A stretch of DNA of 64,000 bases. It comes from Paraspadella gotoi (Eukaryota > Animalia > Chaetognatha). This document shows positions 1 through 53,572 of the stretch, piece by piece (the stretch's first letter is position 1; every line of letters starts with the position of its first letter). Made by a program: the position numbers and the translations under genes. The stretch covers positions 1,416,262 through 1,480,261 of the forward strand of contig JBJCIZ010000744.1 of assembly GCA_051294375.1 (NCBI GenBank). Reading direction: 5' to 3'. Under the pieces are notes generated by a model. That model searched no databases and was not told the origin of the DNA. It saw only the letters and a program-made list of their open reading frames with translations.

Positions 1-896
1 GACCGACGATCTGATCCGTCAGATGTCGCGTCTCGGCGTCGTCGCCAGTGTCCAACCCTCGATGGTCTGTTCCGACGCTGGGTGGTTGGCCGACAAGGTG
101 GACGACGCTATCTTGGCGGGTGGGTAAATTTGAGGTGGTTTTTTCGGAAAAGGGGTGACGGATGGAATTTTCTTTTGGTTTATTTATTAATAACCTTTGG
201 CAACAGCCGGGTTGCCTGTGATGCCCATTGGGATGGGGCATCTCACCGTTGGCTTTGGGAGCTTCCGACCCTCAGTGACGCCTCCAGTTATTGGCGCCAA
301 TGGATTTGGCTGAACGATGGTGGACGTGAGGCGGTGTGAATATAGCGCCACAAACCATCCGTTATTTTTTACTGTCACTATTTGGGTTTATTTTTATTAC
401 CTTCGTCAATCAGAAGATGAATTATTCATTGGTTCATTCGTATTTTAATATTTTAATATATGTATTAAGTTTAACATTCAACTCAATTCCTCGGAAAAAA
501 AAATCCATTCCAGACCACGCCTACGCCTGGAAGAGCCTCTCCTCCAGCGGCGTATCCCTCGCCTTCGGTTCCGACGCCCCCGTCGAGTATCCCTCTCCGG
601 CGCTCGGCGTTTACGACGCCGTCTTCCGTCAAGCGTCTCGTCGAGACCCCGACGTCGCCTCCCCCGAGATCTTCAAGCCGGAAGAGCGCCTGACCGTTGG
701 CGAAGCCGTAGACGCCTACACGACGGGCGCCGCTTGGGCCGCCGGACGGGAAGATAGTCTGGGTCAGATCGCCCCCGGATTCGAGGCCGACTTTGTTGTT
801 GTGGAAGGGGACGTGGATCCAGTCACGGAGGCTGGGGAGTGGCGGAAGATCAAGTTTGGACAAGTCTGGGTAGCGGGCAAGAGGAGGGTCGGATGA
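1..896 (+). CDS. 3' part of a YtcJ/LAF3-like metal-dependent amidohydrolase (Amidohydro_3); exons <1-119 and 514-896
   Basis: Spliced translation ...RQMSRLGVVASVQPSMVCSDAGWLADKVDDAILA|DHAYAWKSL...FGSDAPVE...LTVGEAVDAYTTGAAWA...GQIAPGFEADFVV has the typical C-terminal motifs of this family. GT donor at 120 and CAG acceptor at 511-513 are phase compatible. Confidence 0.85.
196..352 (-). mobile_element. Internally deleted copy of the 255-bp twister-bearing LTR-like element, in the amidohydrolase intron
   Basis: Near-identical to 8579-8833 at both ends. A 98-bp internal deletion removes the catalytic half of the ribozyme. Direct repeat AACC at 192-195 and 353-356. Confidence 0.85.
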
Positions 897-1243
897 GATG
901 AGGTGGCGTTCGTATTATTTCATTTTCTCTTTACTATTTTATTACTACTTTTATTACTTTTATTACTATTTTATTACTACCGGGACGATCGAGACTTGCT
1001 ACTTTTGATTAATTATTACCTTTTATGCAATTTTTTCCGTGCCTCGAGATTTCGATTGGGAGATCAGCGCTTTTCTCTTACGGTTTACCATATGTTTGTT
1101 AAATGAATTTATTTCTGTTTTGATCGATTTATTTTTCGATCCATTCTTACGCTTAAACGAAGAATTCTTTTGTCATAGGCTATAACTTAATTAATTAGTT
1201 AATAATTTAATATTAATTTGACGCATATCCGCGTGGAAAAACG

Positions 1244-4200
1244 ATGGACATAAAATACGAGGTTTTCGACGAGGAATTGGAGGAAGTCGTCCTCGAAGGA
1301 AAAGACGCCGCCGACCAACCACTCGACGGCGAGATCGATCGATGGACGCTCTTGGAGCGCCGCCTTGAAAACTTTCGTCGAAAAGAGGGGCCAGTTGCTG
1401 AAGGGCGACGATACAGAAGTAGACGATTGACTCCGGAAGATGAAGATGGGATTTTGACTCCGGAAGATAAATCCCGTGGACTCGGAATGTCGGAGGAAGG
1501 TCGAACGAATTCTCTTTGCGGAGAATCGATGAGAGATGAAATCTGGCGCACCCAACCCGAATATTCCGTTCGAGAGTACAAAGACCGGCGATCTCCAAGC
1601 GGAAGGTCAACTACTGAAGATGATCGCCGGCGATCGCGAGGAAGACGGTTTACTCCTGAAGATGTACGTCGGCACTCCTTGAGCAGACATTCAACCACTC
1701 CGAGCAGATATTTATCGGTAGACAATGAAATCTGGCGAAGCAGATCCAGATATTCTAGTCCAGATGATAAACGACGTCGCTCTCGAAGCAGGGAGTCAAC
1801 TCCAGATAAATACCGGCACACCTCAAGTAGACGGTCGACGCAATGGACTCAACGCCGAGAATCTCCAAGCAGACAATCGACGACGGTAGATAAAACCCTT
1901 CGTGAGAGATCCAGATTTTCTTCTCCGGAGGATGAGCGACGGAACCTTCGAGGCGGAGAGTCGACGCGAGTGGACGAGCGACGCCGAAGCGGACCTTCTT
2001 CGCCGGAGAAACGACGGCGCCGGAGCCGATCAACGACGCCGAACGACGGCGCCGATTTTGAACGAGGGTCTCGTGCGTCGGCGGAGCATCAAATCTCTCG
2101 AGACATGAAATCGAATCGGGAGATTTTTCAACGAGTTCGAAATTTCGGTCATAGATACGATGGGGAGGACGCCGCCGCTGTCGCCGAGGATTCGGACGCC
2201 GAGATTAACGAAGAGACGAACTCTTGTCGTAAACGAAAAGTGGGCGTGGCGACGATCGGCGAGAAAAGACGGAAGCGGAACGACGACGATGACCGGCAGC
2301 GGAATCGAGCGTCGTTGACATCAAAGTCTCCTTCCCTTATCGATTATCCATCGACGTATTTGAGTTCACAAGTGGATGGAAACGAAGAGAACGAAACGGC
2401 GTCCTTTTTTGAGTCTAGGGAAGATGGAACCGAAAGGACTGAACCGGCGTCGATTACCGGCGTCGACGATCTCGAAATCATCGTCCCTCCGCTTCTCTCC
2501 CTCGAAGCCTTCTGCGATCCCGCCGTCAAGGGTCTTCCTCCGTCGACGCCGCCTCCCCAGCGGCTCCGTCTCTTCGGCGAAATCATGCTCGGCGTCAAGA
2601 TCTCTCCGCTCCCGCTTTTCCAGCACGAGGCGATAGTTGCCTCGTCCCTGAGCACCGCCGGAACGGTGCCGAGGAAGAGGGTCGACTTTCGGCCCGAAGC
2701 CGACGTCTGCGTCTTCGATCTCTTCGTGGATCGAGTTCGCTGCGCGACGGGGAAGGGCGTCGACGCGGCGGCGGCCGAGCGGGCGGGGTTCGAGCGACTG
2801 GCGGAGAAGTTGAGATCCTCGGATTACGTGAAGATCGAAAGGGAATCGGGGGAAGAGAGGTTGGGGCTTTACTCGCGATATTCCGAGGCTCCCGCCGCGA
2901 GTTTTCGCTACGACCTTCTCTGCGGAGAGAGAAAGGTTTCGAGGAAAGATCTCCCGCGATGCTCCTCCTGCGGCGTCGAGGGTCACTTGTACAATTTTTG
3001 CGTCGGGTGGCAGATGGAACATTCGGTGGCGGAGACTCCGCCTTTGTTTGCGATGGATGACGAAGCGATTGAGGTTTGTGGTCGCGAGAAGAAGGAATTC
3101 GTTCGAGCGGGAAATGACTCGCGATTGACGCCGACTGATCCAATCATCCAATCTACCGACCATTCATCGACTCCCAACCCTCGATCACCCATCGATCAAG
3201 ATTCGGTAATTGTTGATTCGCGAAAGAGACGGTTACGTTTTAACGCCGAAGATTATTACTCGGATATTCCGTATCCTTATAACGACCCGATTGCCAGTTC
3301 CGCTGATAATTTCGAAAATAATACGATTAAAAGAGATGAGAGAAAGAGGGGAGGCTTTGATGATGAAGATGTCATGCGCGAAAGAGATAAGTTGAGAAAA
3401 CCCATAGTTTCTTCCCATGCTCACAAAGACGATTCCTTGCCTAAATTTCAAACGAAATCACCATCAGCACGATATAAATCACCATCTCCACTTCCTAAAT
3501 CACCATCTCCACTTCCTAAATCTCATTCTCCACTCCCTAAATCTATATCTTCAATCCCTAAATCTCTCTCTTCACGCCACAAATCTCCATCTCCGTTCCC
3601 TACCGCCAAAGAAAAATTAATGTTGGGCATCGTCTCGACTCTCAAGCGCCTCCTTTTATCCTCGTCCTCGCCGTGTAGCAAGTACGGCGATTACGAGAAC
3701 GCTGAGAATCTCTTCTACGAAGCCGTCTCTCGCCACGACGGATGCGTTCAGTTGAGAATGGACAAGAATCATTTTGAAATGCTCGTCGACGATATCCTCG
3801 TGCATCAGAGGAAATACGAGGACGGACATCGAGGAAGCAACAAGGCGTCATTTTTCGAGGAATTGATCGACAAATTAAACTTGTGTAGATTTCTCAAAAT
3901 ATTCGCGGGCGATCGAAATGTGTTGATGTTGTCCAAAACCGCCGTGAAGGAGAATGTCGTGTTTTATAAATGCGACGACGAGATTGTCGATTCGCGTTCC
4001 GTCGGCGAAGATCGAGCGTCGATCCCCGCGCCGAATCGATCCGACGATCTTCAGCATTTCTCGGAAATCGCGTCGCGATCTGCGAGAGCCGCTACGAATG
4101 ACGACTCGCCTCGAGTAGTCGGTGGAAATAATTCGGATCAAACTGCGAACCGATTAATGGGTGATGTTTTAATTTCTAAGAAAACGGATGGGAAGAAAAC

Positions 4201-7200
4201 TGTAGGCGAAAGTATGGCGACTACAAAAGAACTCGAATTAACCAAAACTGTATTCTCACGAGCTGTGAAAGATAGCAGTTGCGGGTTGATCAGTGTTACA
4301 AAAAAATTACCTCCAGGTAATGAGCTGATGAAAAACTTAGCTTCAAAACATGACCTTAAAAATCAAATGAGTCCTAAAGAATCATCATCTCAAGAATCTG
4401 GTAGTGGAAGCGTTACTACTCAGGCTAAAAATGTTCAAGAAACTGGAACGATTGAACTTGTAGATTTACCATCAGATGATTTTACTTTGAACTTTTCAAA
4501 ATTAATGCGTTCGATTAAAGAAACGTTTTCGCATCTGCCTCGTAATGAAAAAAATGAACTAACTATGATTATTATTAAAAAACACTACAAACCAGAAACT
4601 GTATGTAATATGTTTGAGACGATTCTGTCTAAAAACAATATGATTGTTAGTTCGGCTATCGACTCTATGAATCCGAGAAAAAATGCTTGGAAGTTTATAA
4701 TAAAGGATCAACGCACACTCACTAATATTTATAATTCAACTATTTATGGAAACTACAAACTGAAACAGAAAACCTTGGTTAGGTTTTATCTGAACACAAT
4801 TTGTCGTTTTATGGCAGCTAATGGGGAGAAAACTGTAGGCGAAAGTATAGCTTTTATAAAAGAACTTGAATTACCCAAAACTGTATTCTCACAAGCTGTG
4901 AAAGATAGCAGTTGCGAGTTGATCAGTGATACAAAGAAATTACCTCCAGGTAATGAGCTGATTAAAAACTTAGCTTCAAAACATGACCTTGAAAATCAAA
5001 TGAGTCCTAGAGAATCATCTCAAGAATCTGGTTGTGGAAGCGTTACTGCTCGGGCTAAAAATGTTCAAGAAACTGGAACAATTGAACCTGAAGATTTACC
5101 ATCAGATGATCTTACTTTGAATTTTGCTAAATTAATGCGTTCGATTAAAGAAACGTTTTCGCATCTGCTTAGTAAAAAAAAAAAAAAACTATCTATAACT
5201 GATATAAAACAAAAATACAAACCAGAAACTTTACATAATATGTTTGAGACGATCCTGTCTAAAAACAATATGATTGTCTGTTCGGCTATTGACTCTATGG
5301 ATCCGAAAAAAAATGCTTGGAAGTTTACAATAAAGGATCAACGCACACTCACTAATGTTTATATTTCAACTGTTTATGCAGTCAAAAAACAGAAACCTGT
5401 TGTAAGGTTTTATATGATCACAATCTGTCGTTTTATGACAGCTAATTATATGAGAATTAAGAATGTTGAGAATGAAAAAATTTTAGAATTGTTTCCAGAA
5501 AAGCAAGTAACATTATGTTATGGATACGATGTACTTTGTAAGCATTTGGATTTAATGAACAATACTTATCGATTACATCCAGAAAATAAAAATGGTGTGA
5601 TGACTGTGGGCGAACAAAGTTCAGCGATAACTGTTACTGAATATAGCTTCGCGAATCTTATGCATTTGATAAAAAATTCCTTTCAACTTTTGTATGATTT
5701 TACGAAAACTGACAAGTGCCACGAGAATATGGTTGAGTCATTGTATGGGAAAGAAAAAATTGCCAACGAATTTGAAAAAATACTTACAAATTCTAAAATG
5801 GTTTTGAACACGACTTTTGAAAACAATATTTGGCTGTTTAGTATAAATAATGTCCTTGTCTTTTGCACATCTATAGTTCAATTCCCGGATGCTTTAAATC
5901 AGTTTTATCAGCAGATTATATACGATATCGTACGGTCAGATTATCTAAAGCTGGTTACTGTTAATAATGTTCAATTAATTTTAAAGTTATTCGAAACGGA
6001 GAAAGACGCTTTACATGGGTCAAAAAGATATGACTTACTTTGTAAATCATACCTCATTTCTAAAAAAGATGGCCAGAGTTTAAAAGCTAAAGACGACCAG
6101 AGTTTAAAGGCTAAAGACGGCCAGAGTTTGAAGACGAAACCCAATGAAAACCGAAGCTCTCATTCAATAAAAGTTCCAGAAAAAGAGCAACAAAGCAAAT
6201 TTAAAAAACAGTCTGAAAAGAAGCAATCAAACCAGCTAAGTGTTAGCGTCAGTAAGGAAGCAGTTGAGGGAAACATTTTTAAAAATAATCAGGGAGACCG
6301 TAAACCTGAAAAAAATATTTCAGAAAAAAGTTTGGAATTGATAAATTTAGGGTTAAAGTCAACACGTCTTCAGTTATTTCCTTTACATCCTGAAAATACT
6401 AATGCAGTCAGTGTTGTCGGGGATGACAATACAATTTTTTCGGCAACGGTTCCCGAGAGACGTTTTGCGAAATTAATGCAATTGGTAAAAAATACTTTTG
6501 CATTTTTGCATAATTTGCCAAAGATTTTAAATCGTTATGAAAGCTTAATATCTTGCCGCTGTAATAAGGATGACTTGGCCAGTATATTTAAGGAATTATT
6601 AGAAAATAATCAAATGACTTTAAGTACTATTAATGAAAACTATCTTTGGAAATTTAAAATTGACAACATACTCGTTTTTATTTCAAAAAAGGCATTCAAT
6701 AATGCTTTCATCCAGTTTCACCGTCGATTTATATGTAAAATTGTACTATCAGACTATTTAAAACTTGATATGGTCAACAATGAACAAATATTTAAAATAT
6801 TTGAAACTGAAAAAGAGGCAATGAAAGGCTCGTACAGATATGATTGTCTTTGTAATAACGATCAAGACCGAGCTCATGCGTCAACTGAGAATAAACAAAA
6901 AGAATTGGAAATTGAGGTTCAATTAAAAAATACCAAGCATCCAGTTGAATCAAACCAAACATTAACGCCTGCAGCAGCCTCTCACTCTCACAACCCACAG
7001 CAGAAGCTGCAGTGCCGATGGAAGGATAGCAGATCAAAAAATTATTTTGAAGATTTTTCTGAGAAAAACTCTAAAACTGATAAAAATACTGCTGGAAGAA
7101 CTACTAACTCTCAGAATTTACTAGAAATAGGTCTTCAATCTTTTCGTTCGTTTCCCTTACATCCCGAGAATTTCGAAGGTGCCCATATTGTCGGTCAACA

Positions 7201-7645
7201 AGATGATGCGTCAAATTTGGCAACTGACAATGAGAAAGCCTTTGCAAAGTTCATGCAAACTGTGAAAAATACCTTTGCCTTTTTGTATAATATACCAAAG
7301 TTTTTGAGTAGTTATGAAAGTATTCTTGGACAGAAATGTACAAAACAAGAGCTTGGTGGTATTTTTCAAGAAATATTGAGACACCATGAAATGGTATTAA
7401 CCTCATATCATTTTGGCAACTTTTGGCATTTTAAAGTTAATGATATTATAATCTTGAGTTCAAAAAAAGGTGCTTTTCATGACGCTCAGAATCAGTGTTT
7501 CAGACGGACTATATGTCTTATTGTGCTATCAGATTATTTGAAACTGGACACAATTAACGGCCAGTGTACTTTGCTCCTGTTTGAAACAGCAAAACAGGCC
7601 AGCGAGGGCTCGTATAGATACGATGCTTTGTGTAATAAAATATAA
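1244..7645 (+). CDS. Intronless 2133-aa protein: RS-rich N-terminus, CCHC zinc knuckle, multiple copies of an uncharacterised domain
   Basis: 6.4-kb uninterrupted ORF. CSSCGVEGHLYNFC fits Cx2Cx4Hx4C. Recurrent motifs FAxLMxxxKxxF, WxFxI, SDYLKL and GSxRYDxLC. Confidence 0.8.
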   Translation: MDIKYEVFDEELEEVVLEGKDAADQPLDGEIDRWTLLERRLENFRRKEGPVAEGRRYRSRRLTPEDEDGILTPEDKSRGLGMSEEGRTNSLCGESMRDEIWRTQPEYSVREYKDRRSPSGRSTTEDDRRRSRGRRFTPEDVRRHSLSRHSTTPSRYLSVDNEIWRSRSRYSSPDDKRRRSRSRESTPDKYRHTSSRRSTQWTQRRESPSRQSTTVDKTLRERSRFSSPEDERRNLRGGESTRVDERRRSGPSSPEKRRRRSRSTTPNDGADFERGSRASAEHQISRDMKSNREIFQRVRNFGHRYDGEDAAAVAEDSDAEINEETNSCRKRKVGVATIGEKRRKRNDDDDRQRNRASLTSKSPSLIDYPSTYLSSQVDGNEENETASFFESREDGTERTEPASITGVDDLEIIVPPLLSLEAFCDPAVKGLPPSTPPPQRLRLFGEIMLGVKISPLPLFQHEAIVASSLSTAGTVPRKRVDFRPEADVCVFDLFVDRVRCATGKGVDAAAAERAGFERLAEKLRSSDYVKIERESGEERLGLYSRYSEAPAASFRYDLLCGERKVSRKDLPRCSSCGVEGHLYNFCVGWQMEHSVAETPPLFAMDDEAIEVCGREKKEFVRAGNDSRLTPTDPIIQSTDHSSTPNPRSPIDQDSVIVDSRKRRLRFNAEDYYSDIPYPYNDPIASSADNFENNTIKRDERKRGGFDDEDVMRERDKLRKPIVSSHAHKDDSLPKFQTKSPSARYKSPSPLPKSPSPLPKSHSPLPKSISSIPKSLSSRHKSPSPFPTAKEKLMLGIVSTLKRLLLSSSSPCSKYGDYENAENLFYEAVSRHDGCVQLRMDKNHFEMLVDDILVHQRKYEDGHRGSNKASFFEELIDKLNLCRFLKIFAGDRNVLMLSKTAVKENVVFYKCDDEIVDSRSVGEDRASIPAPNRSDDLQHFSEIASRSARAATNDDSPRVVGGNNSDQTANRLMGDVLISKKTDGKKTVGESMATTKELELTKTVFSRAVKDSSCGLISVTKKLPPGNELMKNLASKHDLKNQMSPKESSSQESGSGSVTTQAKNVQETGTIELVDLPSDDFTLNFSKLMRSIKETFSHLPRNEKNELTMIIIKKHYKPETVCNMFETILSKNNMIVSSAIDSMNPRKNAWKFIIKDQRTLTNIYNSTIYGNYKLKQKTLVRFYLNTICRFMAANGEKTVGESIAFIKELELPKTVFSQAVKDSSCELISDTKKLPPGNELIKNLASKHDLENQMSPRESSQESGCGSVTARAKNVQETGTIEPEDLPSDDLTLNFAKLMRSIKETFSHLLSKKKKKLSITDIKQKYKPETLHNMFETILSKNNMIVCSAIDSMDPKKNAWKFTIKDQRTLTNVYISTVYAVKKQKPVVRFYMITICRFMTANYMRIKNVENEKILELFPEKQVTLCYGYDVLCKHLDLMNNTYRLHPENKNGVMTVGEQSSAITVTEYSFANLMHLIKNSFQLLYDFTKTDKCHENMVESLYGKEKIANEFEKILTNSKMVLNTTFENNIWLFSINNVLVFCTSIVQFPDALNQFYQQIIYDIVRSDYLKLVTVNNVQLILKLFETEKDALHGSKRYDLLCKSYLISKKDGQSLKAKDDQSLKAKDGQSLKTKPNENRSSHSIKVPEKEQQSKFKKQSEKKQSNQLSVSVSKEAVEGNIFKNNQGDRKPEKNISEKSLELINLGLKSTRLQLFPLHPENTNAVSVVGDDNTIFSATVPERRFAKLMQLVKNTFAFLHNLPKILNRYESLISCRCNKDDLASIFKELLENNQMTLSTINENYLWKFKIDNILVFISKKAFNNAFIQFHRRFICKIVLSDYLKLDMVNNEQIFKIFETEKEAMKGSYRYDCLCNNDQDRAHASTENKQKELEIEVQLKNTKHPVESNQTLTPAAASHSHNPQQKLQCRWKDSRSKNYFEDFSEKNSKTDKNTAGRTTNSQNLLEIGLQSFRSFPLHPENFEGAHIVGQQDDASNLATDNEKAFAKFMQTVKNTFAFLYNIPKFLSSYESILGQKCTKQELGGIFQEILRHHEMVLTSYHFGNFWHFKVNDIIILSSKKGAFHDAQNQCFRRTICLIVLSDYLKLDTINGQCTLLLFETAKQASEGSYRYDALCNKI
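4186..5446 (+). repeat. In-frame tandem duplication (about 630-bp unit) inside the large ORF
   Basis: GAAAACTGTAGGCGAAAGTAT starts both units (about 4195 and 4828). Both end in TGTCGTTTTATGRCAGCTAAT. The peptide KTVGES...NVQETGTIE...RFYxxTICRFM is repeated. Confidence 0.9.
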
Positions 7646-7835: not shown

Positions 7836-10251
7836 ATGCAGCCCTCGATATCAAAACGCATAACCGGAGAAGTTGTTAAATCAATATTCCCTAAGATAAC
7901 CACCGTTCTATTAGACGCGGATGGGGTGCTGTGGGAAGGATCCCAGTCGATTCCAGGTATAGCGTCGAATCTTAAAATAAAAAAGTTTAATATATTTCTC
8001 GTAAGTGTTGTATTTAATTATCTTTATTTGGATATGCATTTCGATCGTTGATAATCATTTGAACAAATTTTTTTGTTTACTGTTAATTATCAATTAATTT
8101 TAATTTATTTTGATTTTAATTTTATATGAAAATTTTTTTTTACTTATATAGTTATAAGTTATATCTAATAACTCATTTTGGGAAGGGGAAGTCGGTGTTG
8201 TGGGAGCATCTATACAACACAAAGTTAGATTACAATCTGTCCTAGTTTTCTAATAGGTATCACACATCGTTCCTGTAAGAAAGTCATTAATGAAAAATCA
8301 TAATATCTAATAGACTGAACAGAAAGAGATGGGAATGGATAATTTTTTGAAGAGGAACCAAAGTTATATTTGATTTTTGACAATATAAATGGAACTATCG
8401 AGGCGAATTTTGATATACAACCCCTGTCAAGAGATACAGGGTCCTGCCAGCTTTTTTTGGGGTGCCAAAAAAAGCTAAAAATTTTTTTTGGTATTTTTAA
8501 AAAATTTTTACTAGCATCAAGTGCATTTACATTTTAAACATTTTAAAACTAAAATTGATGAATTTTAAATAATTAGACTATGGCAACAGCCGAGTTGTCT
8601 GTGATGCCCATTGGGATGGGGCATCTCACTGTTGGCTTTGGGAGCTTCCGACCCTCAGTGACGCCTCCAGTCACTGGCGCGGTTACCCTAGGACGGTCTC
8701 GCTTTGCCAACGCAGAGGGAAGTCGTTAGGACTGTGGATGGAACACTACGCCTGGGATGGTGTGTTCTCCCTCTGAGCCAATGGTTTTGGCTGAAGGATG
8801 GTGGACGTGAGGCGGTGTGAATATACCGCCACAAGACATCGTTTGAAGATGCATGGTTCATCGTTTTACAATTTTCCTAAATTATTCAAAATCTGAAGCT
8901 GAAAATTAAGGTAAACTAATATTTTTATTGTAATAAATACGTTTTTGTGGAAGAGTAAACGTCTGTGTAACTGTTCAAAACCAAAATAAACCATTTTTTG
9001 CCCCAATGGGTGACCCCTCCGGGGCCACATATCTCGGCTCAGGGGTAAAATATTGAAATTCTCCTCGATAGTTCTACTTGTATTCACATAGGGATCGTTC
9101 ATACCAAATTTAAATAAATTTGGTCTAGTAGTTTTCTCGGAACGAGTTATGGTGAAACTCAGTTCGTCCCATTGGCTTGGACAGCTAAGTACTCGTTAAA
9201 ATCCCCTCATGGTTACGCTGGCTAAAGTGTGATGGTGTCGACATAAACACGCCAGTGACATGGGGTGGTCACTGCAGGTCCAAAGCCCTGAGCGCCAGCT
9301 GTTGGGAGATGCCTCACACCCTAGGCATCACACATGTCCCCCCGTTGTCATAGTACCTCATTTTATAATATGAAGCCTTCTGTATATATATATGAACTTT
9401 TAAATTTTCACCTTTTTTTTTTAAATACAAAATCCGTTTCTTCAGGCTCAATCGAAGCCTTCAACAAGATGGTCGCCCTCGGCAAACGCCTCATCATCGT
9501 CACCAACAACAGCTCAAAGACTCGAGAAGAGTACAAACGCAAATGCGACTCCATGGGCTTCGTCGTCCCTTTGGAGAACATCATGTCCACCTCCTACGTG
9601 ACGGCTTGGTACTTGAAGAAGCGCCGCCTCCCGGGAAAGGTCTACCTCGTGGCCAGCGAAGCCGTGGCCAAAGAGTTAAGCGCCCAAGGCGTAGATCACG
9701 TCGGGTGCGGCCCGGACGAGTTGGAAGCCTCGGTGGACATCGTGGACTGGTCCAAGTCGAATCTCCGCCTCGAACCCGACGTCTCCGCCGTCGTCGTCGG
9801 CTTCGATCGCTTCTTCAACTACATGAAGCTCTTGAAGGCCTCTTCCTACGTCCGCGGCGGCGGCGCCCTCTTCGTGGCCACCAACGAGGATCAGCAGATG
9901 CCCGTGGGCGAGAGGGTCGTCATTCCCGGCACGGGATCCCTCGTCGACGCCGTCAGCTGCGCCGCGGATCGTCAACCGGACGTCGTGTTGGGGAAACCGC
10001 ACGGGGCGATTATCGAGTGTTTGTCCGAGATTCAATCCATCGATCCTTCCGAGACGATCATGATCGGGGACAGACTCAACACGGACATTCTCTTCGGCGC
10101 CAACAATGACATACGGACCGTGCTCGTCTTGACCGGATGTTCTCGGCTCGAGGACGTCATTCGCTGCGAAGGCGCCGACGGAGACTCGGAACGGCGACAG
10201 GTGCCGACCTTTTACGCGGAATCCTTGGGCGAGATCGGGGAGATGCTTTGA
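7836..10251 (+). CDS. PGP: HAD-IIA phosphoglycolate/glycerol-3-phosphate phosphatase; exons 7836-7956 and 9446-10251
   Basis: Motif I LLDADGVLW, plus VTNNSSK, GKP and MIGDRLNTDILFG...VLTG. GT at 7957 and CAG at 9443-9445, phase 1. Confidence 0.85.
8579..8833 (-). mobile_element. 255-bp LTR-like element with 4-bp TSD and an internal twister ribozyme
   Basis: AGAC direct repeat at 8575-8578 and 8834-8837. Minus-strand termini TGTGGC...GCCATA. About 8 differences from the copy at 52444-52698. Confidence 0.9.
8631..8711 (-). ncRNA. Twister ribozyme, type P5 permutation
   Basis: Minus strand reads GUUGGC AAA GCGA GACCG UCCUAGGG UAA CCGC GC CAGUGAC-UGGAGGC-GUCACUG AGGG UCGGAAGC UCCC AAA GCCAAC. 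This parses as P5, P2', GA+T1', P1, U^AA, P2, T2, P3, P4/L4, P5'. T1 is CGG:CCG. Predicted cut between 8685 and 8684. Confidence 0.85.
9193..9352 (+). mobile_element. Diverged relative of the twister element (160 bp), sense to PGP
   Basis: Shares the P3 stem CAGTGAC/GTCACTG, the downstream GATGCC...GGCATC hairpin and the 3' end GTTGYCATA with the 255-bp family. Candidate TSD GTAC at 9189-9192 and 9353-9356. The 5' end lacks TG, so that boundary is less certain. Confidence 0.65.
9217..9299 (+). ncRNA. Twister ribozyme, type P5 permutation
   Basis: GCUGGC UAAA GUGU GAUGG UGUCGACA UAA ACAC GC CAGUGAC-AUGGGGUG-GUCACUG CAGG UCCAAAGC CCUG AGC GCCAGC. P2-P5 are fully Watson-Crick, T1 is CCA:UGG and T2 is GC:GC. 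Predicted cut between 9244 and 9245. Confidence 0.9.
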
Positions 10252-11336: not shown

Positions 11337-11570
11337 GTAGAGAGAGATCAGAGATCAGAAACGAGGCAGTCTTCAACTTACCCTTAAGAAACTCGCATCA
11401 AAATTCCCCAAGCTCAGAAATAATTTCGTCACAATTGTTGATAAAGCATCGATTGTTCACTGTTTATTATTTATTGAATTATTTACTAATTTTCTTTTGA
11501 TAATTTCTAATCATTTTCTTAGTCAAGTTGATTATTCACCGTAACCAAAGACATACCTTTACCATTCTCT

Positions 11571-13379
11571 ATGGATAAAATCACCGACAATGCTTTTCAA
11601 TCTTTGAGCATCGTCGACGGATCCGCTGCAGCCAGTGACGACTTTGACGTGACGCTGCGCGGATGCGACGGCGTCTCCGTCCGCGCCCACCGCTGGGTCC
11701 TCCGCCGACGATCGAAATACTTTGACTCGATGTTCCGATCCGGCCCGGCCGACGCCGAGCCGCACTTCGGAGAGATTTCCGGCGCCGTCCTCGGGAAAGT
11801 CGTCGAGTTCTTCTACAAAGGCGCCTTGGAGGCGCCCCCGGATCTCCTCGACTCCATCACCCGCGCCGGCGACTATTTCGAGTCTCAGGAACTCGTGGAA
11901 TACTGCGAAATAAAAATCTGTCGTCGTTTGATCGAGGAAAAAAAGAAAAATCTTTCCGAAGAAAATATTTTCTCCGTCGTCGAAAGCTTTATGTTGGCTT
12001 GTCAGCTGAATCTCTATCGCCTCAAGGAATACGCCAAGGAGACCCTCGTGCGTCATCTTCATAAACCCCGAATTCTGTCCAAGTTGACGAGGGAATTCCA
12101 GGATTATCGCTACGTCGAAGACCTCTGCCGACTTTTCGGAATCAACGTCGCCGTGAAATTGAAAAAGGAGACGAAATTCTTCGAGGATGAGTTTTGGTGG
12201 ATGATGATCGAGGGATTTAAATTCGTCGACTCTCGCCTGAGAATCGCCTTGTCCCTTCAGGAGAATTTGAGAGGGATCGAGGCTTACGAGTTGTACTTGA
12301 ATCACGAATCGGATCGTTCGACCCTTCGGTCGCAATTTCAGATGAGACCGAAGGCGGAGAAGAGAGAGAATTGTTTATACGATCCTTTATCGAGGAAGGT
12401 GGTGGAAGTGATCGAGGAGAAGGAGTCGAGCAACTCGTTCCGATTCAAATGTCGCGACACTGGAGAAAAAGATTTCGTCGGCGCGGAATTTCGCGTCTCC
12501 TTTCCCGAGATCGACTCCGATCCTAAAATAGAACACGTGAGCCTCTTCGGCAATTACGCCTTTGTCGTCACTCATCGAACTATCGTCGTCTTTTCTTTGA
12601 TCGAAAGGAGAATCCTTCGAACTTTCCACATCGACGAAATGTTGGGAAATCCCTTCGATCTTCGAGTCGTGTGGATGAGCATTCGCGGAGGATTGGCCAT
12701 TTTGTACGTGAAGGCGACGTTCGGCGGCGCCCAAGAGGCAGAACGTCCTTACAACTTCGTCTTCTACTTTGACGCGTCCGACCCGGAAATGGTTCGCTAC
12801 ATTTCCCGTTGGAGTTGCTCCAGGACGACTCGTTTCGCTCTGGATTTTTTCGATCGTTTGGTGAAAAGAGAAGACGATTCTCACTGCCTCGTCTACCAAA
12901 GATATTTGTCCCCCGAAGTTACTCCCTTTGAAATAAGCAAATCGTTTCATCCTATTCGCATAAAACTCGGCCGCGGTTACTTTTGGTGCAAAGATTGCGA
13001 CAATATCCTCGCTTACGATGGTTTGGAGAGCACCGTGGGGGCATTCAAGTTACCCGCGCTCCAGTTCGGATTGCGAAGGTTCGCCGTTTTGCCCGGACCC
13101 GACGATCTTCTGGCCATAATTTACGTATATGACAATTCCATAGCTTGGGTCGTCTCGGATCTGAAAAAGGATCTGAAATGGAGCGAAAAGTTAACTATTG
13201 ACAATTATTACAAGGTAGTCCGTATGAAAATTCCAGTGATGAAGTCGAGTAGAATTAGCAAATTACCCTTCGTCGGCGCCGAAGCCGCACATTTCTACGG
13301 CGATGAAGTCGTCATCCAGGCGAACTCCGAGTTTTTTAGTTTTGTCGTTATTCGTGAACAGCTTTCGCGCTGTGCGTAG
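11571..13379 (+). CDS. BTB/POZ-domain protein, intronless (602 aa)
   Basis: DVTLRGCDGVSVRAHRWVLRRRSKYFDSMF...VVEFFYKG is a BTB signature. The C-terminal region is beta-rich. Confidence 0.85.
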   Translation: MDKITDNAFQSLSIVDGSAAASDDFDVTLRGCDGVSVRAHRWVLRRRSKYFDSMFRSGPADAEPHFGEISGAVLGKVVEFFYKGALEAPPDLLDSITRAGDYFESQELVEYCEIKICRRLIEEKKKNLSEENIFSVVESFMLACQLNLYRLKEYAKETLVRHLHKPRILSKLTREFQDYRYVEDLCRLFGINVAVKLKKETKFFEDEFWWMMIEGFKFVDSRLRIALSLQENLRGIEAYELYLNHESDRSTLRSQFQMRPKAEKRENCLYDPLSRKVVEVIEEKESSNSFRFKCRDTGEKDFVGAEFRVSFPEIDSDPKIEHVSLFGNYAFVVTHRTIVVFSLIERRILRTFHIDEMLGNPFDLRVVWMSIRGGLAILYVKATFGGAQEAERPYNFVFYFDASDPEMVRYISRWSCSRTTRFALDFFDRLVKREDDSHCLVYQRYLSPEVTPFEISKSFHPIRIKLGRGYFWCKDCDNILAYDGLESTVGAFKLPALQFGLRRFAVLPGPDDLLAIIYVYDNSIAWVVSDLKKDLKWSEKLTIDNYYKVVRMKIPVMKSSRISKLPFVGAEAAHFYGDEVVIQANSEFFSFVVIREQLSRCA

Positions 13380-13658: not shown

Positions 13659-14068
13659 CTCTCTCTCTCTCTCACTAGATAGACAAGTTATCTGGTCGTT
13701 TATAATGTTATTTTAAATATTTTTACATTTACTGATAGGAAATGATGTCAATATTGTTTATGTAACATTTCAAATCAATCGACCCACGCGTTGAAAAATA
13801 ATCAACAATTCCACGCCCAATTTTTAAAACAAATCTGCGTTCGTTAAATTTTCTTTTTGGTTCCACTTAAATTTTTAGCTTTTGCCGAGTGACTTCATTG
13901 GTAATAAAAAAATTGATTTTCTTTGATATCTTTTGAACCAAAAATGATAGAACGATAAGACTGGTATCATATTAAAAGCCATTGTGTTAATCCTTTCGGC
14001 TTCGTTGAGTATAGAGATTTAACAAAGTTTGGAAATGTTTTCGTCAACGATTTTTTTATTAGTATACG

Positions 14069-14104
14069 GACATGTTTCGACTCTTCATTTCGAGACTTCA
14101 TCAG
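14069..14104 (-). ncRNA. Minimal type I hammerhead ribozyme (one stem II mismatch)
   Basis: Minus strand CUGAUGA A GUCUC GAAAUGAA GAGUC GAA ACAUGU C. Confidence 0.6.
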
Positions 14105-15313
14105 CGGTAATGATGCATTAACAAATTTGTGTAAAAGAAGGAGAGAGAGAGAGAGTGAGAGAAAGAGAGAGAGAGAGAGGGCCAAAAGTTTCCAACACAG
14201 AGATAGTTGTTAAAGAATGAGTACAGTTTGAATTGAGGACAGATCAGTTGTGAAAAGGAGTGAAATGGTCAATTGGTGAAAGAGAGAGAGAGAGAGACAG
14301 AAGGAGAGAGGGAGAGAGAGAGAGAGAAAAACAGGGAGAGACAAAATAATACATTATGTAATGTACAACAAAGAATAAATTTAAACTAATGGTGAATTTA
14401 ACAATTATTCTAGTAATAAATAGATAGTAATGAAAGGAAAGAAAGTTTTTAAATGTGAAATGATACATTTTGTGAGGGATAGATAAGTGAATATTAAAGT
14501 GAAAAATTAAGAATTAAGATAGAGCTCAAAATGATTCCTCTCCCTTGATTGTAGCAACTCATTCCCTCTCTCTGGGGAATGAGCGCCGCCCAAAAGGACG
14601 GCTACGGAGGAGGGAGAGGAGTCCACCACTCCTGTTGCAAAAGCGGCAAGAACGGACAACCGCCCGCCTCGCCAGCAGGCGAGAAGGGGGCAGTCGGCAG
14701 GTGTACCAGGCCAGAGAGACATTCGAGTCGCACTTGGTCTCTTCCCGCAAGGAAGCTTACCTAATGCAACGGCAATGAACTCAACAGAATTGTCATCTCA
14801 ACCAATGACGCGTCAATGATCCGGCTTCATCGTTAAAGCCTTTCATTTGCATAAACCAAGGGGGCCAGCTCATTTTGAGCTCTATCTTAATTCTTAATTT
14901 TTCACTTTAACATTCACTTATCTATCCCTCACAAAATGTATCATTTCACATTTAAAAACTTTCTTTCCTTTCATTACTATCTATTTATTACTAGAATAAT
15001 TGTTAAATTCACCATTAGTTTAAATTTATTCTTTGTTGTACATTACATAATGTATTATTTTGTCTCTCCCTGTTTTTCTCTCTCTCTCTCTCTCCCTCTC
15101 TCCTTCTGTCTCTCTCTCTCTCTCTTTCACCAATTGACCATTTCACTCCTTTTCACAACTGATCTGTCCTCAATTCAAACTGTACTCATTCTTTAACAAC
15201 TATCTCTGTGTTGGAAACTTTTGGCCCTCTCTCTCTCTCTCTCTTTCTCTCACTCTCTCTCTCTCTCTCTCTCTCTCCTTCTTTTACACAAATTTGTTAA
15301 TGCATCATTACCG

Positions 15314-15349
15314 CTGATGAAGACTCGAAATGAAGAGTCGAAACATGTC
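15314..15349 (+). ncRNA. Minimal type I hammerhead ribozyme of the Penelope-associated kind
   Basis: CUGAUGA A GACUC GAAAUGAA GAGUC GAA ACAUGU C. Perfect stem II, palindromic ACAUGU in place of helix III, and a GUC cleavage triplet. Confidence 0.75.
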
Positions 15350-16633
15350 CGTATACTAATAAAAAAAAAATCGTTGACGAAAACATTTCCAAACTTTGTT
15401 AAATCATATTAAAGCCATAATTATGGGGCATCTTTTCCATATAATTTTTTTCAAATATTTCCACGGATTTTTTAAAAATCTGGATCGGAATCTTAGTCAA
15501 AAGTATAACAACTTTTGAAATTAAATTAAACACACTTGGCTGTATTTAAAAAAATAAATGAATATAGATTCTGAAAGAGAAATGATTGAATTATGTTTCT
15601 GATATAAACAAAAATTTTCTATACCTCAAATGTTTATATAATTACTAAGGATAATAAATTATCATTTTGTTGAAAACAAAAAAATTTAAAAAATTCATGA
15701 AGGAACCTTAAAAAACATATAATTTAAATATGAAAATTTAGGAGTTCAAACTTTGTTCCGGCTGATTTAAAAACTACTGACATAGGGCTAAAAGGCTGTA
15801 TTATCAGATTTTTAAATTTTTGTCATCTTCAGGTGCAAATTAAAACCTTTGCATAATGCCCATTAGCTATATTAATATAACTATTTTTTATTAAAAAAAG
15901 CATAACAATCTTTTAATAACACGCAAATGCATGTAGCTGTATGGTAAAATTGTTGTTTTTATTTTTTATTATAATACAAGGCTTTTATCAATAAAGGGGT
16001 AAATTGCAAAGAAAAATAAGTTATTTCAAGGCTCCATATTGATACTATGATATCAATGAATTTTCTTTGTTCCGGCAACGAAATGTACCTAAGACATTGT
16101 AGTTTCATTAGCTAATCTTTATTTTTATAATTTTAAAGGGCATGTTTGGCAAAAACAGTAAGAAACAAAAATGACAACAAATTTTGAGAAAAAAAATTGG
16201 ATTAATTGTTATTATTTCTTACTATGTCGTCAATTTATTTTTTTCGTTATGTGCTTGAAAGTTAGGCTAAACCCAACAGAATCGGAATCAGTGCATGACA
16301 GCTGTATATTTAATTGACTTATACAGTAAATACCGCAAAATAAAAAAAAATTAAAAAGAAATTCAGACCAAGCGTCGTGTTTATTTTCAGTATTTTTTAG
16401 TCAAGACCTTTATGGATTTTCTTTGTTCCGGCGGCGTTGGATAGCCCAAACACTGCAGTTTCAGAAATCATCCATGGTTTTGTAATATTTACTGCGCTAC
16501 TGGTGCAAAAATTGCTAGGAACCAAAATTATCAGAAACGCTTCGTTCTTTCGGATTTTTTTTAAGCGCGGAGCGACATATCTACTCTCACCAACTTGATG
16601 TTTGTGAAAAAATGAAATGAGTGATTTCAAACG

Positions 16634-16662: not shown

Positions 16663-17673
16663 AAAAATAAAATTGTTGTTTCGCGAAAAACTTTCGTCTT
16701 TCTTAAAAGAAATTTAGATACTAATTTAGATACTCATTTCCGATGCATTACAGAATGCCTCGTATTATAAAATGATATCGGGTTTTCATCTGACCAGACG
16801 CGGTTCCCACTAAACTACCTCATGGAATTTATTTATTTAAATTTTGTTTGAATTTTAACGACTAAATACATAGAATTAACGAGGCGAATTTTGAGATTCA
16901 ACCCCTGATTCAGGACCCGATTCAGGACCCTTGGGCTAAACTTTTGACTATTTTTTGCTTCTATGGATGACCCCCTTAGGGAGCCTGGCCTTAATAGTTC
17001 TATTTGTATTCCCATTCAGAACCATGTGTGGCCGGAAAAAGGCCCGATATAATTTTATAATATGAAGCCTTCTTATATGCAACTCTAAAAGTAGTATGAA
17101 ACCAACACTTCCTCCAGTTTATAGTTTAGTCTTGGTTGTTGTTGTTGTTGCTTTTTATTATTTTTTAGATATTTTTACCGTTGTATGCAATTAAATTTTA
17201 CTCTTCGACCTCATGACTGAAGTTGGTATTTTTTATAATTAAATAGAATTTTAATTTACATATTATTTTTTCCTATGCGTTGTAGGTGGTTAGGTAGGTA
17301 GGTAGGTACATAATCCCTGTTTTTAGAATTATGTATTTATTGTCGTACACAAAACATTTCGGCTCAATAACTTTTGAGTTAATTTTTTTTTTTTTATTGT
17401 TCATTTCAAAAATTACTCTTACAATGACAATTTTCATCCTGTTAATCAAACGTTAAGATTTAAATATTAATTTTTTTTTATTTTAATTTTACTTTTTTTT
17501 CTTAATCATGAAACTTTTTTTTTCACACGATGCTCATTGTTAAATGTTACACTTTTTATCGTTTTAAATAAAAATAGTTTATATTTAAAAATATAGTTTG
17601 AAATAAATGTTCTTCGTTTTTAGGCACTAGTTTCGTTTTATCCGCAATCAAAGAGTGACTCCCTCCAATCGTC

Positions 17674-18395
17674 ATGGTCAAACTCGTGACCAACTCGTTG
17701 CGCCCTCTTTTTTCGTCGACCGACGACAGAAACGATTACGACGTGACGTTGCGCGGCTCCGATGGCGTCACCGTCCACGCCCACCGCTTCATCCTCCGCC
17801 GGAGATCGGAATACTTCGACGGGATGTTCCGCTCCGGCCTCCTTGACGGAGATCCCGTCTTCCATCAATTCTCCGGCGCCGTCCTCGAGATGATCGTCCA
17901 GTTTCTCTACGAAGGCCGAGTCCAAGTCGCCGAGGATCAGTTGTTCGCCTTGATCGACGCCGCCGATTATTTTCGGATCAAACGGTTGGTGGATCTTTGC
18001 GAGATTCGCGTCTGTCGCTCCTTGGATTCGCCCTTCAACGACGATGGTCGGGATTGTGGCCAAGAAGGAGTTTCTCTCGAATCCATCGTGGAATACTTCG
18101 TCCTCGGTTGTCGTCTCTCTCGTTATCGATTGAAGGCGTATTCCTTGGAGGCGCTCATGCCTCGTCTCCACGAATTCGGAGTCCTCTCCGCGTTGACGAA
18201 CGACTTCGCCGAGTATCGCTTCGTCGAGGAACTCTGCCGACTCCACGGGATCGACGTTGAGGCGCGGATGAAGAGGGAAAGGTCTCTTCTTTCTCAACAT
18301 TTATTGTTTCAGATTAGGAGCGATTTTCCAATAGAAAGAGTTTTCAATGTTAAGAATGTGACCAACTGGTTTACTTTGGAGAATGAGAATAGTCC

Positions 18396-18428
<33 letters not shown>

Positions 18429-21400
18429 AAATAGAAATGATTACACTTGACCCTGGTCAGTATCGAATACGTCTAATGGGTCCTTTTGTCTAGTAATGCA
18501 GAAGGGATAATACTAAAACACAGAATGTTAATAGTACGCAAGTATTAGGCAGGACTGTTCCTTTTTCCTAGCAAATCCCTTGACAATAAACAAATACATT
18601 ATTAAATGTAGTTAAAATTTGTAGTTTTCTACTGTCTATGCGACAGCATTCAACTCCAGAACTGGCCGATTGGCCTCGTTCAGAGCAGAGGGCCTGTTGG
18701 CTGTCTCCAGGGCGAAGGGCCTGACGGCCACGTCCTTTCCCTGGAAGATTCACGAAGTGGCTGGTCCTCACTGAAGGTCCACTGACTCCAGGGTCGAGTC
18801 CTGCAGCAATTTCCATCCCTACCTCCGGTCGTTGTTTTTGCGATAGTACACTAACGCCTGTTTCTGAAACATTCATACGAACTTTTAGAAAAAAGTTTGA
18901 GAAACGGTTTCCATAGAGGAAATGTGAGTTTTTACATTCTCATCTGATCTTTTGATGATGTCGTCGAAAAGGTCATTTTTTTCTGCGATGTTTAGGATTC
19001 TCTTCAGTACAGAAGCAAAAGAGGTTTCAAAGAGGTTGGTAGAGTTGCTTGCATCGAGGACTAGGAGATTGGGAGTATGGATTGCTAAGTTCAATAGTAG
19101 TTTAATTGCTTGGATGTGAAGCTTATCGACTTTGTCCCATTGTTGTTGATGATCCATGTAATGCTAGAATATTGAAAAAAGGGAAACTGTAAGAGATTTG
19201 TAAATTGAGAGAGAGAGAAAGAAAGAGAAACCAACCAACCAACCATTTGAATTACAAAGAATAGAATTTAGCAATATGGAGGGAAAAAAATGCGTGAGGT
19301 TCGTGATGGAATAAAAAATACGTAAAGAGTGATGAAGTCCTTAAACCACCAAAAAAAAAGCCTGTCCAAAAGTCTGTAAAAAGTCTATAATATTTATTAA
19401 ATGAATAAACTATATCCCAGGTCCTTTTTCGTGGAAGAATTTTGGACTCTCTTGGTTCATCGATTCTGTTTCATCGACTCTCGCCTTCGGATCGCTCTTT
19501 CCTCGGAATCCAACCTCAAAGGCGTCGCCGCTTATCAGTTTTGCCAGAATCTTATTTCCGCACGGAAACGTATTTCCTCGGGGTTCGTGGAATTCTCAAA
19601 GTTGCCCAAGAGGAGCAGGTGAGGTCATTGGGGGGAAGGGGGTAAATTAGTTTCTCTTATTTTGACATTGATAATGATGATAATGAGAATAACAATAATA
19701 ATCAGATTGCCTGCTAGTTGCGAATTAACTTAAATCCCTTTTACAGATGGTGTCTCTTCGATCCTGAGTCGAGGAAGATCATCCAAGTGACCAAAGACTC
19801 TGAGTGGAGCGCCGTCGTCAGATTCAAGGCGCTCGAGACGAACGATGATGATGATGATTCGATTCGCGTCGTTCACGAATTTAGCGTCAGTTTTCCGCAG
19901 CATACCAGCAGGTTTGGGGAAGAGCGGGGAGGTATTATTTTGTGCGCGTCCTTGTTTTTGTTTATATTATTAATATTAATATTATTAAATGTTATCGGGG
20001 TGTCTCTCTCTCTCTCTCAAACTTTTTTTAACTCATCCCTCAGAAACTCGTGTGAGAGTAAATCCCAAGCTCAATTATATCATTGTGAAAACGTTTACAT
20101 TAAATCAATATTAAAAAAAAATATAATTAATATTTACTGAAACCAAACTATCTTTAACTTAAGAGAGGACGTTCTGTGGGTGAGCCTCTACGGCGACTTC
20201 GCCTTTATCGTCGCCAAACCTTTTCACTTGATCGTCTTCTCTCTTCTTCGTGATCACGTGATCGGATGCTTCTCCTTCAGACGATTCACCGTCGTCTCCG
20301 CGACGCTCACTTTTCAAGGTAAGGAACCCACCGACCAATTTTTCGAATTAAATTACCCTCGTTGTGATTAATGTAAATTTTTTTAAAAAATATATATTTA
20401 AACTTTTTTTTGGTTTTTCAAAATTTCAATGTTTTGTCCGTGAAAATTCATAAAAATTTGTACAATGAATCAATGATGGAGATATTTTTTTTTGATCCAC
20501 CCACGTAACATGAAAATATTAATAAAAAAAAAAATAATCGGTGAATAGTGAGTTAATATTAAAAACGAATTACTCGGGTAATTTTCATTCATTGAAAGTT
20601 TTTTTTTTCGGATTTGCATACGTACGTACATAAAGTTTCATTAAACAAGGTTATAATCTTTTGACCCTCGCCCCTTTTCACTAATATATCATAATATTGT
20701 TCTATAATGAAAAAGGCGGGTTGGCTACCCTCGTCTCCACCGTGGTCAACCACGAATCCGAATTCCGCTCCGTGTCTCACTTGGACGTCTCCGACCCGCG
20801 ATGCGTCCTCCATCTCTCATCCTATTTGTGCAAAGACGACGAAAAGGTTTTCACCCTGGATTTCTTTGATCGGTTCGTGAGTGGGGCCAGGGGGGGGGGC
20901 GGGAGAGGGGGTAGACTCCCTCCGCAAAGCCGAGGGGCCTGAGGCTCTTAGTGGGGGCCCCGGGAAAAACTCACAAGGCTACAAACAACCTTGTGTTGTA
21001 TAGATGCTCCCTCTATTTCCTAAAAATAAACATAAAAAAACTTTAACAAACAAACAAACAAGATCGGTAAATATAATGTGTTGCGCCGCAGTGACTTTCT
21101 TAGCCCTTATGACACGCACTGCATCGGAATTCCATCTTTTATTCTTTATAGTTTTAGGATTTCCTGAAGTCGGCGCAAGCAAACTATAAGCGAGTTATGA
21201 GCATTTTTAACGTAAGTGGGACAGACCGACGGACAGACATACCGACCGACCGAGCGACAGACTGACCGAGTTGCTCCGCGAGTACTCTTTAATTATGACA
21301 CCTTCAGTCGTCACTCGATGGCTCATTGATTTAAAGCCATCAGCTCCTGACCAAGTAGGCACCGGGATCGATCCCCAATGGTACCTCCCCTAAGGGTAGC

Positions 21401-30596: not shown

Positions 30597-39862
<9,266 letters not shown>

Positions 39863-52698: not shown

Positions 52699-53572
52699 GT
52701 ATAATATTTTCAAGAACTGTTTCAATTGTATAAACGGACCATTCCCTTGAGTATTATTGGATAGGGAAATAATAAGTACTCCGAAATGGCCTTAAAATAC
52801 TAGGATCTGACGTGTTAAGTACCTTTTGCCTTTTTTGCTCTCTAAAATGGATTGACTAATGACCGTCCATTGGAATCTCAGTTTTCGATATCAACGATCA
52901 TGTTTGTCTTTTTGGTCGTTTTTATATTTATTACTTTTATTTGTTACTAAATTGCTTATTTTTTTAGTAGAAAATCGTTTGTTCGTTAATTATTCATATC
53001 TTGTTTTGATTTAAAGATTTCACGCGGCCGTAACGTCCGCGTGTGAAAAGAAAGTGAGCGAGATGCGTCAAGTAAAACAACTGACTTTTATTGACAACTA
53101 AATTATCCCTCAAGCATTAACTTTAAATTGCATGGACAACAAACTTAATACAGTACTCGCCACAAAAAAAGATAAAAGGAGCTCTTGCTGATTAATCTCT
53201 CAAATCTTTCGTCTTCGTTTACTCAAACGTATACAGAAACCGATCTCAAAAACATTGTTTTAAAGACCGTCTAGTCTATTATTTTACTCAAATCGTTCGA
53301 CCGCTACTCGAATCTTTGTATCTCTATTATCGGATTCCAAAAGAAAAAAAAAATTACGTTAGTAGAAATGAGAATTATTAGTTATGGTTTTGCAACCATT
53401 ATACAATTATAAAATTAGTCAATTCTCAAAGAATTGAAATTCTCCCAACAAAAGAGACCGCCGAAAAAAAGGAACCAAACAACAACCTGGTTGTTGCTAT
53501 CGAAATTTAAATTTAATTTAAATTAATCACGAAAAAAAAACACCTCCTCATCGAAGAAAACCAATTTAGCCT

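Follow-up and report, generated by a model that had tools for sequence, protein, structure and literature searches.

The 64,000-nucleotide stretch of Paraspadella gotoi DNA analysed here (contig JBJCIZ010000744.1, positions 1,416,262 to 1,480,261; hereafter the window) contains three copies of a short element that resembles a long terminal repeat (LTR) of a Ty3/gypsy retrotransposon and carries, on its minus strand, a predicted twister ribozyme of type P5. Our preferred interpretation, to which we assign a probability of about 0.6, is that these copies are solo LTRs of a non-autonomous, retrozyme-like element mobilised by CsRn1 retrotransposons, whose RNA would be cut by the twister in both LTRs and then circularised. 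The element is likely an animal twister retrozyme, and its divergent P5 twister is probably functional. The copies and the target-site duplications (TSDs) that flank them are as follows.

8579..8833, minus strand as the sense strand (twister and primer site): copy A, a 255-bp solo LTR with termini TGT...ATA and sharp ends in the contigs of public sequencing runs X1, X4 and X9
8575..8578: left TSD of copy A, AGAC
8834..8837: right TSD of copy A, AGAC
52444..52698, minus strand: copy B, a 255-bp solo LTR with the TSD GTAT at 52440-52443 and 52699-52702
196..352, minus strand: copy C, a solo LTR of 157 bp with termini TGT...AAA and the TSD AACC at 192-195 and 353-356

Three copies with these positions, lengths (255, 255 and 157 bp) and flanking 4-mers had been proposed in a first-pass annotation of the window, and all of these were confirmed. 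An exact 4-bp repeat flanks each of the three copies and is different at each, with a chance of approximately 1e-7 for three such repeats. Copies A and B are 96.9% identical (differences at 8 of 255 sites), and copy C has a 98-bp internal deletion with which the predicted twister cleavage site is gone. The termini given earlier as TGTGGC...GCCATA hold for the minus strand of the full copies, both of which run TGT...ATA, and fail for the deleted copy, which ends in ...AAA. The element was also said to lack a convincing open reading frame, in agreement with a longest ATG-started frame of 49 codons. All three copies stand singly, with no tandem arrangement and no tail, and a word-7 BLAST of the window returned no further copy except one weak 71% fragment at 9244-9332. 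An AT-rich interspersed repeat lies near copy A at 8162-8374 and again at 48602-48832.

The family affiliation of the element was assessed from its ends and from its primer-binding site (PBS). Published marks of the CsRn1 clade are a 4-bp TSD, LTR ends of TGT...AAA or TGT...ATA and a tRNA-Trp PBS, and the tabulated LTRs of CsRn1 elements are 146-383 bp long (PMC2582038). The TSD length and the termini were found in all three window copies, with both end variants present among them, and the tRNA-Trp PBS was found, by comparison with the published consensus, in one contig of run X10. This contig (276 nt, depth 6) matches 8579-8767 over 189 nt with 4 differences to copy A and extends 85 nt past 8579, 30 letters of the extension being visible. 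Past the LTR end, read in the twister sense, a 2-nt spacer precedes 10 letters that equal the published CsRn1-clade PBS. After four more letters come 13 nt that are complementary to tRNA-Trp in its variable-loop/T-arm stretch, judged by the nematode and wheat sequences (PMC6903752, PMC8722339). The rough chance is 1e-5 for the 10-letter block and 3e-7 for the 13-nt block. The primer site on this contig is bipartite, with an acceptor-stem block and a T-arm-region block between which the 3' strand of the T-stem is looped out. Primer pairing in two blocks is known from Ty1 and HIV.

Since the primer site lies downstream of the element end on the twister strand, the 255-mer can be identified as an LTR and the twister strand as its sense strand. 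CsRn1-like termini, a 4-bp TSD and a tRNA-Trp PBS together indicate solo LTRs rather than a miniature inverted-repeat transposable element (MITE) or a short interspersed element (SINE), and by these sequence signals the window copies are real solo LTRs of the CsRn1 type within Ty3/gypsy. The solo-LTR interpretation of the first-pass annotation is thereby supported. Of the further marks that it had named, a TSD fixed at 4 bp and the lack of a tail held in three of three window copies and a PBS appeared in the one contig; paired LTRs and a polypurine tract (PPT) were seen in none of this material. No PBS-like or tRNA sequence was found in the 64-kb window, and the 20 of 43 literature matches listed for the PBS letters were all unrelated primers. 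Among viral contigs, a tRNA-Trp/PBS pattern gave 0 loci and a pattern of LTR end plus PBS gave 5 loci, none of which is an LTR element. The X10 contig spans the predicted cleavage site; uncut RNA, DNA and a circle closed by re-ligation would all look the same in this respect, and the observation was not used as evidence.

The predicted ribozyme was located with a descriptor of the type-P5 twister and by alignment to Rfam, and its parts were found at the places where the first-pass annotation had put them.

8631..8711, minus strand: predicted type-P5 twister of copy A, by descriptor and Rfam alignment
8711-8706/8636-8631, minus strand: P5, 6 bp
8702-8699/8682-8679, minus strand: P2, 3 of 4 pairs, one C-A mismatch
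8698-8697, minus strand: catalytic GA, in L1
8696-8694 with L4, minus strand: T1, 3 of 3 Watson-Crick pairs
8693-8686, minus strand: P1 hairpin, 2-3 bp
8678-8677 with L4, minus strand: T2, 2 of 2 Watson-Crick pairs
8676-8656, minus strand: P3, 7 bp
8654-8641, minus strand: P4, 3 of 3 pairs
8651-8644, minus strand: L4
8684..8685, minus strand: predicted cleavage site U^A of copy A, with 149 nt of LTR on its 5' side and 106 nt on its 3' side
52496..52576, minus strand: predicted copy B twister, in which all P4 pairs are G-C; cleavage predicted at 52550/52549

The cleavage motif U^AA of copy A (8685-8683) was placed by alignment to the Rfam twister-P1 consensus. The descriptor, which was written from the twister consensus after the twister claim had been seen and which allows any T1 triplet, matches both full copies, 1 of 20,000 shuffles of the element and none of 20 shuffled windows. 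When 98 bases of copy B were compared with Rfam, twister-P1 ranked best of 4,227 families on that strand (15.9 bits, E 0.35), with an alignment that is truncated because that of a permuted form must be. Relative to the Rfam consensus the element retains U^AA, T2, the L4 frame and the catalytic GA, and it departs from the consensus in two T1 pairs that are reversed on both sides, so that pairing is kept, and in the C-A mismatch of P2. The mutant matrix of the Osa-1-4 twister indicates that the same T1 swaps keep relative activities of 0.74 and 0.86 (PMC5113685 supplement), that a one-sided T1 change alone is mostly dead and that the P2 mismatch of the element keeps 0.97 (PMC5113685). Other work likewise reports that flaws in P1, P2 and P4 are tolerated and that T1 pairing is required (PMC11662667, PMC9901934). 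The ribozyme had been called complete, which holds by the descriptor and does not hold by Rfam, where it scores below gathering; the P2 mismatch, a P1 of 2-3 bp and the two reversed T1 pairs qualify it further. The sole difference between copies A and B within it is at 8643 in P4, G-U against G-C, as had been claimed.

Variation within the family points in the same direction. Sixteen sites vary at 3% or more within the element, and 12 remain once the 4 at which copy A alone differs are dropped. The 74 non-loop positions of the ribozyme contain none of the 12, and the 7-nt P3 loop contains 2 (P=0.015, post hoc). We consider it very probable that the LTR contains a selected twister, and we expect, with rather less assurance, that this twister cleaves measurably. 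In viral contigs a pattern of the twister 5' half gave 65 loci, and of 71 collected viral loci 0 matched the descriptor or looked like the element.

Under the preferred reading, the parent of the solo copies would have the order LTR, PBS, interior, PPT, LTR and would probably be non-coding. The twister would cut the parent RNA in both LTRs at LTR position 149/150, releasing a unit made of 106 nt of LTR, the PBS, the interior, the PPT and 149 nt of LTR. Cut in both LTRs, this RNA would lack a cap and poly(A), as well as the terminal repeat that strand transfer needs. A host ligase would join the 5'-OH and cyclic-phosphate ends, and the resulting circle would regain one whole LTR, which would stand in for the terminal repeat removed by cleavage. 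The reverse transcriptase of a CsRn1-type helper, primed by tRNA-Trp, would copy the circle, passing through the LTR with no need for a strand jump, and the borrowed integrase would insert the cDNA and generate the 4-bp TSD. Solo LTRs would arise from LTR-LTR recombination or by direct integration of LTR-length cDNA, and they would be dead ends because they have no primer site. The same cycle, with cDNAs of solo-LTR length, has been proposed in the plant retrozyme model (PMC4918200). The retrozyme step, with a non-coding two-LTR parent and a circular RNA, is inferred.

A number of results weigh against this reading. A covariance-model match to twister, which the first-pass annotation had offered as a check, did not appear at the Rfam gathering threshold; the 15.9 bits of twister-P1 compare with a cut-off of 67.2, and an Rfam scan of 401 bases at E<=10 returned 5 weak matches, none of them twister. 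The descriptor also gives one loose, G-U-rich match in the window at 56876-56799. The three departures from the consensus have been tested singly and in another twister, never combined. The final 52 nt of the LTR contain no more variable sites than the ribozyme does, and the constraint is to that extent not specific to the ribozyme. A rod-like competing fold, in which L4 pairs with the P2 strand, is 10-11 kcal/mol lower than the nested twister fold (-18.9 and -21.4 kcal/mol), pseudoknots being uncounted. Folding z-scores on the twister strand (-0.8 and -2.1) are no better than on the opposite strand. The same doubly swapped T1 was sought in viral contigs with a P1-type pattern, where 80 of at least 119 loci gave 5 partial pairings, none convincing when judged without Rfam scoring. 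The PBS comes from a single depth-6 contig of a run whose label names a different organism, and the 30 letters visible past its LTR contain no PPT and no second LTR. Finally, the interior may encode Gag-Pol.

Several of these points would be explained if the element were an ordinary or TRIM-like (terminal-repeat retrotransposon in miniature) LTR element that replicates by strand transfer of linear RNA, with a twister-like motif that is inactive or incidental, being either misfolded or a captured relic. The sub-threshold Rfam score, the competing fold and the weak P1 and P2 favour this explanation, as does the existence of core-deleted copies (copy C and internal joints in contigs), though the deletions may post-date insertion. 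We nevertheless regard it as unlikely, since drift would hardly produce T1 changes on both sides that preserve the pairs while keeping the catalytic core intact, and the ribozyme core is shunned by variable sites. The rod-like fold may indicate poor activity, or it may be an off state that protects a circle.

A second possibility is that an autonomous CsRn1-clade retrotransposon carries the twister and that cleavage sets the ends of its RNA, perhaps aiding cap-independent translation, whether or not circles form. The ends and the primer site of the element are all of the kind found in autonomous CsRn1 elements, its interior lies outside the sequence seen, and translation that depends on a ribozyme is reported from both RNA viruses and non-LTR elements (PMC13725137, PMC8501958). 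Against this, cuts in both LTRs would be expected to remove the cap, poly(A) and terminal repeat of a 5-kb mRNA, the sense strand of the element has no AATAAA poly(A) signal, and no reverse transcriptase or integrase frame was seen beside any of the three copies; we therefore judge this explanation improbable. A MITE of the Ginger type, or of another DNA transposon, with a twister by chance would account for TG-type ends, a 4-bp TSD, small size and single-unit insertions. Ginger-type elements have TG-type ends, a 4-bp TSD and terminal inverted repeats. The terminal inverted repeat of the 255-bp element measures just 5/6 bp, a DNA transposon has no use for a tRNA-Trp PBS, here set off by the canonical 2 nt, and asymmetrical ends of the TGT...ATA/AAA kind are on record for CsRn1 LTRs (PMC2582038), all of which makes a MITE very improbable. 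That the element is a SINE or the end of a non-LTR element, akin to the Perere-3/RTE twister variants or to metazoan non-LTR retrozymes, gains something from the occurrence of twisters at RTE 5' ends and can hardly be reconciled with a fixed 4-bp TSD in 3/3 copies, two sharp ends without a tail, untandem window copies and a cleavage site that is internal and away from the TSD.

Compared with known systems, the element on the preferred reading would work like a plant LTR retrozyme, and it carries the cis-signals of CsRn1 elements. Like the element, plant LTR retrozymes have a ribozyme within an LTR of about 250-400 bp, a 4-bp TSD, a PBS right after the LTR, Ty3/gypsy-type ends, solo LTRs and a strongly base-paired sequence; they use a type III hammerhead and a tRNA-Met primer, in contrast to the type-P5 twister and tRNA-Trp found here (PMC4918200). 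The host here is an animal, solo LTRs appear dominant, and the element is known from solo LTRs and one LTR-PBS junction. No hammerhead family was listed in the Rfam scans of the element. Because ribozyme class and primer differ, the element is not a member of the plant LTR retrozymes. It shares its TSD, termini, tRNA-Trp PBS and LTR length range with the CsRn1 clade, including PwRn1 and AgCR; that clade is defined by a Gag CHCC motif and Pol phylogeny, the element is assigned by its cis-signals, and the available text on the clade mentions no ribozyme (PMC2582038). The element is probably a non-autonomous partner of CsRn1 elements.

Among animal systems, metazoan non-LTR retrozymes are likewise short, non-coding, ribozyme-bearing repeats, but consist of tandem type I hammerheads that are linked to Penelope and have no LTR, PBS or PPT (PMC7761336, bioRxiv 10.64898/2026.07.22.740005). 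The Perere-3/RTE variants also place a twister within an animal retroelement, there as a P1-type twister that is often truncated and sits beside the TSD at the 5' end of a long interspersed element (PMC8501958, PMC7761336). The present twister is P5-permuted, has a P3 and lies mid-LTR. Helenus and Ajax TRIMs are short non-autonomous animal LTR elements whose LTR holds a structured RNA module, namely a tRNA- or 5S-derived promoter, and the TSD of animal Helenus is 4 bp. The word 'twister' is counted 0 times in a paper on these elements (PMC10886601), and the element itself has no tRNA-like part above chance. In other work, twisters are reported from viroid-like circles and RNA viruses (PMC12542633, PMC13725137), 1.6% of twister variants lie upstream of an LTR-type reverse transcriptase (PMC8501958), and canonical retrozymes are mostly from dicots while animal hammerhead repeats are without PBS and PPT (PMC5680766, PMC4918200, bioRxiv 10.64898/2026.07.22.740005). 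Two further papers serve as background only (PMC6154101, PMC3286476).

The first-pass annotation knew of no description of this combination, and our literature search also found no description of a twister inside an LTR; Repbase and Dfam were outside that search, and the family or motif could be recorded there. If the reading is true, the design of LTR retrozymes evolved a second time, using a different ribozyme class, primer and helper clade, and twister has a second genomic role. It would also allow the proposal that solo LTRs come directly from circular templates to be tested in nature, and would point to a class of twisters under the Rfam thresholds. Since a divergent P5 twister is missed by those thresholds, elements of this kind may be widespread and have escaped notice. 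A bolder proposal, which we hold as possible and rather doubtful, is that an animal LTR element replaced strand-transfer replication by a twister-made RNA circle and that young, perfectly duplicated solo LTRs are direct insertions of LTR-length cDNA; in its boldest form the parent would be an autonomous CsRn1 element, which would make it a Gypsy element whose RNA genome is circular.

The abundance of the family was examined in public sequencing runs, 12 of the 14 listed sharing words with the element. Contigs aligned to 8529-8883 numbered 7,730 (X1), 2,769 (X4), 454 (X9) and 1 (X10), from four studies, X1 being possibly the source sample, and summed contig depth is no measure of copy number. 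Contig cover jumps up at 8579 and drops at 8833, in line with sharp element ends. Loose contig ends at the element edge numbered 127, 100 and 26 on the left and 82+81, 66+80 and 18+19 on the right (X1, X4 and X9, respectively), and flank letters beyond the element ends agree at merely 0.42-0.47 with AT-rich majority letters. Loose ends with such low flank agreement indicate many separate insertions with unrelated flanks, and the 255-bp element is a high-copy family. No head-to-tail joint was found among the 15 of 84 contig joints listed, and internal joints revealed further core-deleted copies besides copy C. The joints 8575-8837 and 8566-8841 correspond to the surrounding sequence without the element; they probably stem from further copies of a host repeat, because the right flank of copy A (8834-8870) is itself repeated in the sequencing runs. 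In X9 the summed depth over 8601-8636 is about twice that over 8649-8720, unlike in the DNA runs, and this was not used as evidence; that X9 and X10 are RNA is a guess, and contigs can reveal neither RNA ends nor levels. A metagenome scan with the left end of the element gave 1 match, by chance and within a bacterial gene, and a scan of prokaryotic genomes with the element core gave 0 matches.

A Pol III promoter in the LTR was considered and dropped. An A-box/B-box-like pair lies upstream of the twister at 8780 and 8745 (minus strand, window 8780-8735) with 4 mismatches and recalls TRIMs driven by Pol III, and a better pair occurred in 182 of 3,000 shuffles on one strand, which is chance level. 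ARAGORN at its 80% threshold called no tRNA in the element, and Rfam gave no tRNA match.

Copies A, B and C are each antisense to the nearest gene, and three copies are too few for this to carry meaning. Copy C lies within a host intron.

120..513, plus strand: GT-AG intron of an amidohydrolase-3 gene, with the twister strand of copy C antisense to the gene

This intron-bearing gene occupies 1-896 (plus strand) of the window; its spliced frame stays open over the intron junction, and Pfam Amidohydro_3 matches exon 2. The amidohydrolase-3 family is better known from bacteria. For MGAT1, one match stands at 74% and the next at 58-65% identity, the latter to molluscs, chelicerates and vertebrates without preference, as expected of an animal from a poorly sampled lineage. 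At 1217-7645 (plus strand) a single open frame of 2,142 codons includes internal repeats of about 630 nt (4188-5446), with no Pfam match in either half. Long inverted repeats, possibly foldback elements, occur at 14016-15405, 43886-45917 and 59319-62078, measuring 536 nt at 96% and about 1,000 nt at 81% and 73%. A 1.6-kb tandem duplication at 35846-39035 (95.6%) contains an exon that is DEAD-box helicase-like by eye and is either real or an assembly artefact. Related frames at 11532-13379 and 17659-18450, which are BTB/POZ-domain-like by eye, are 75% alike over 185 nt.
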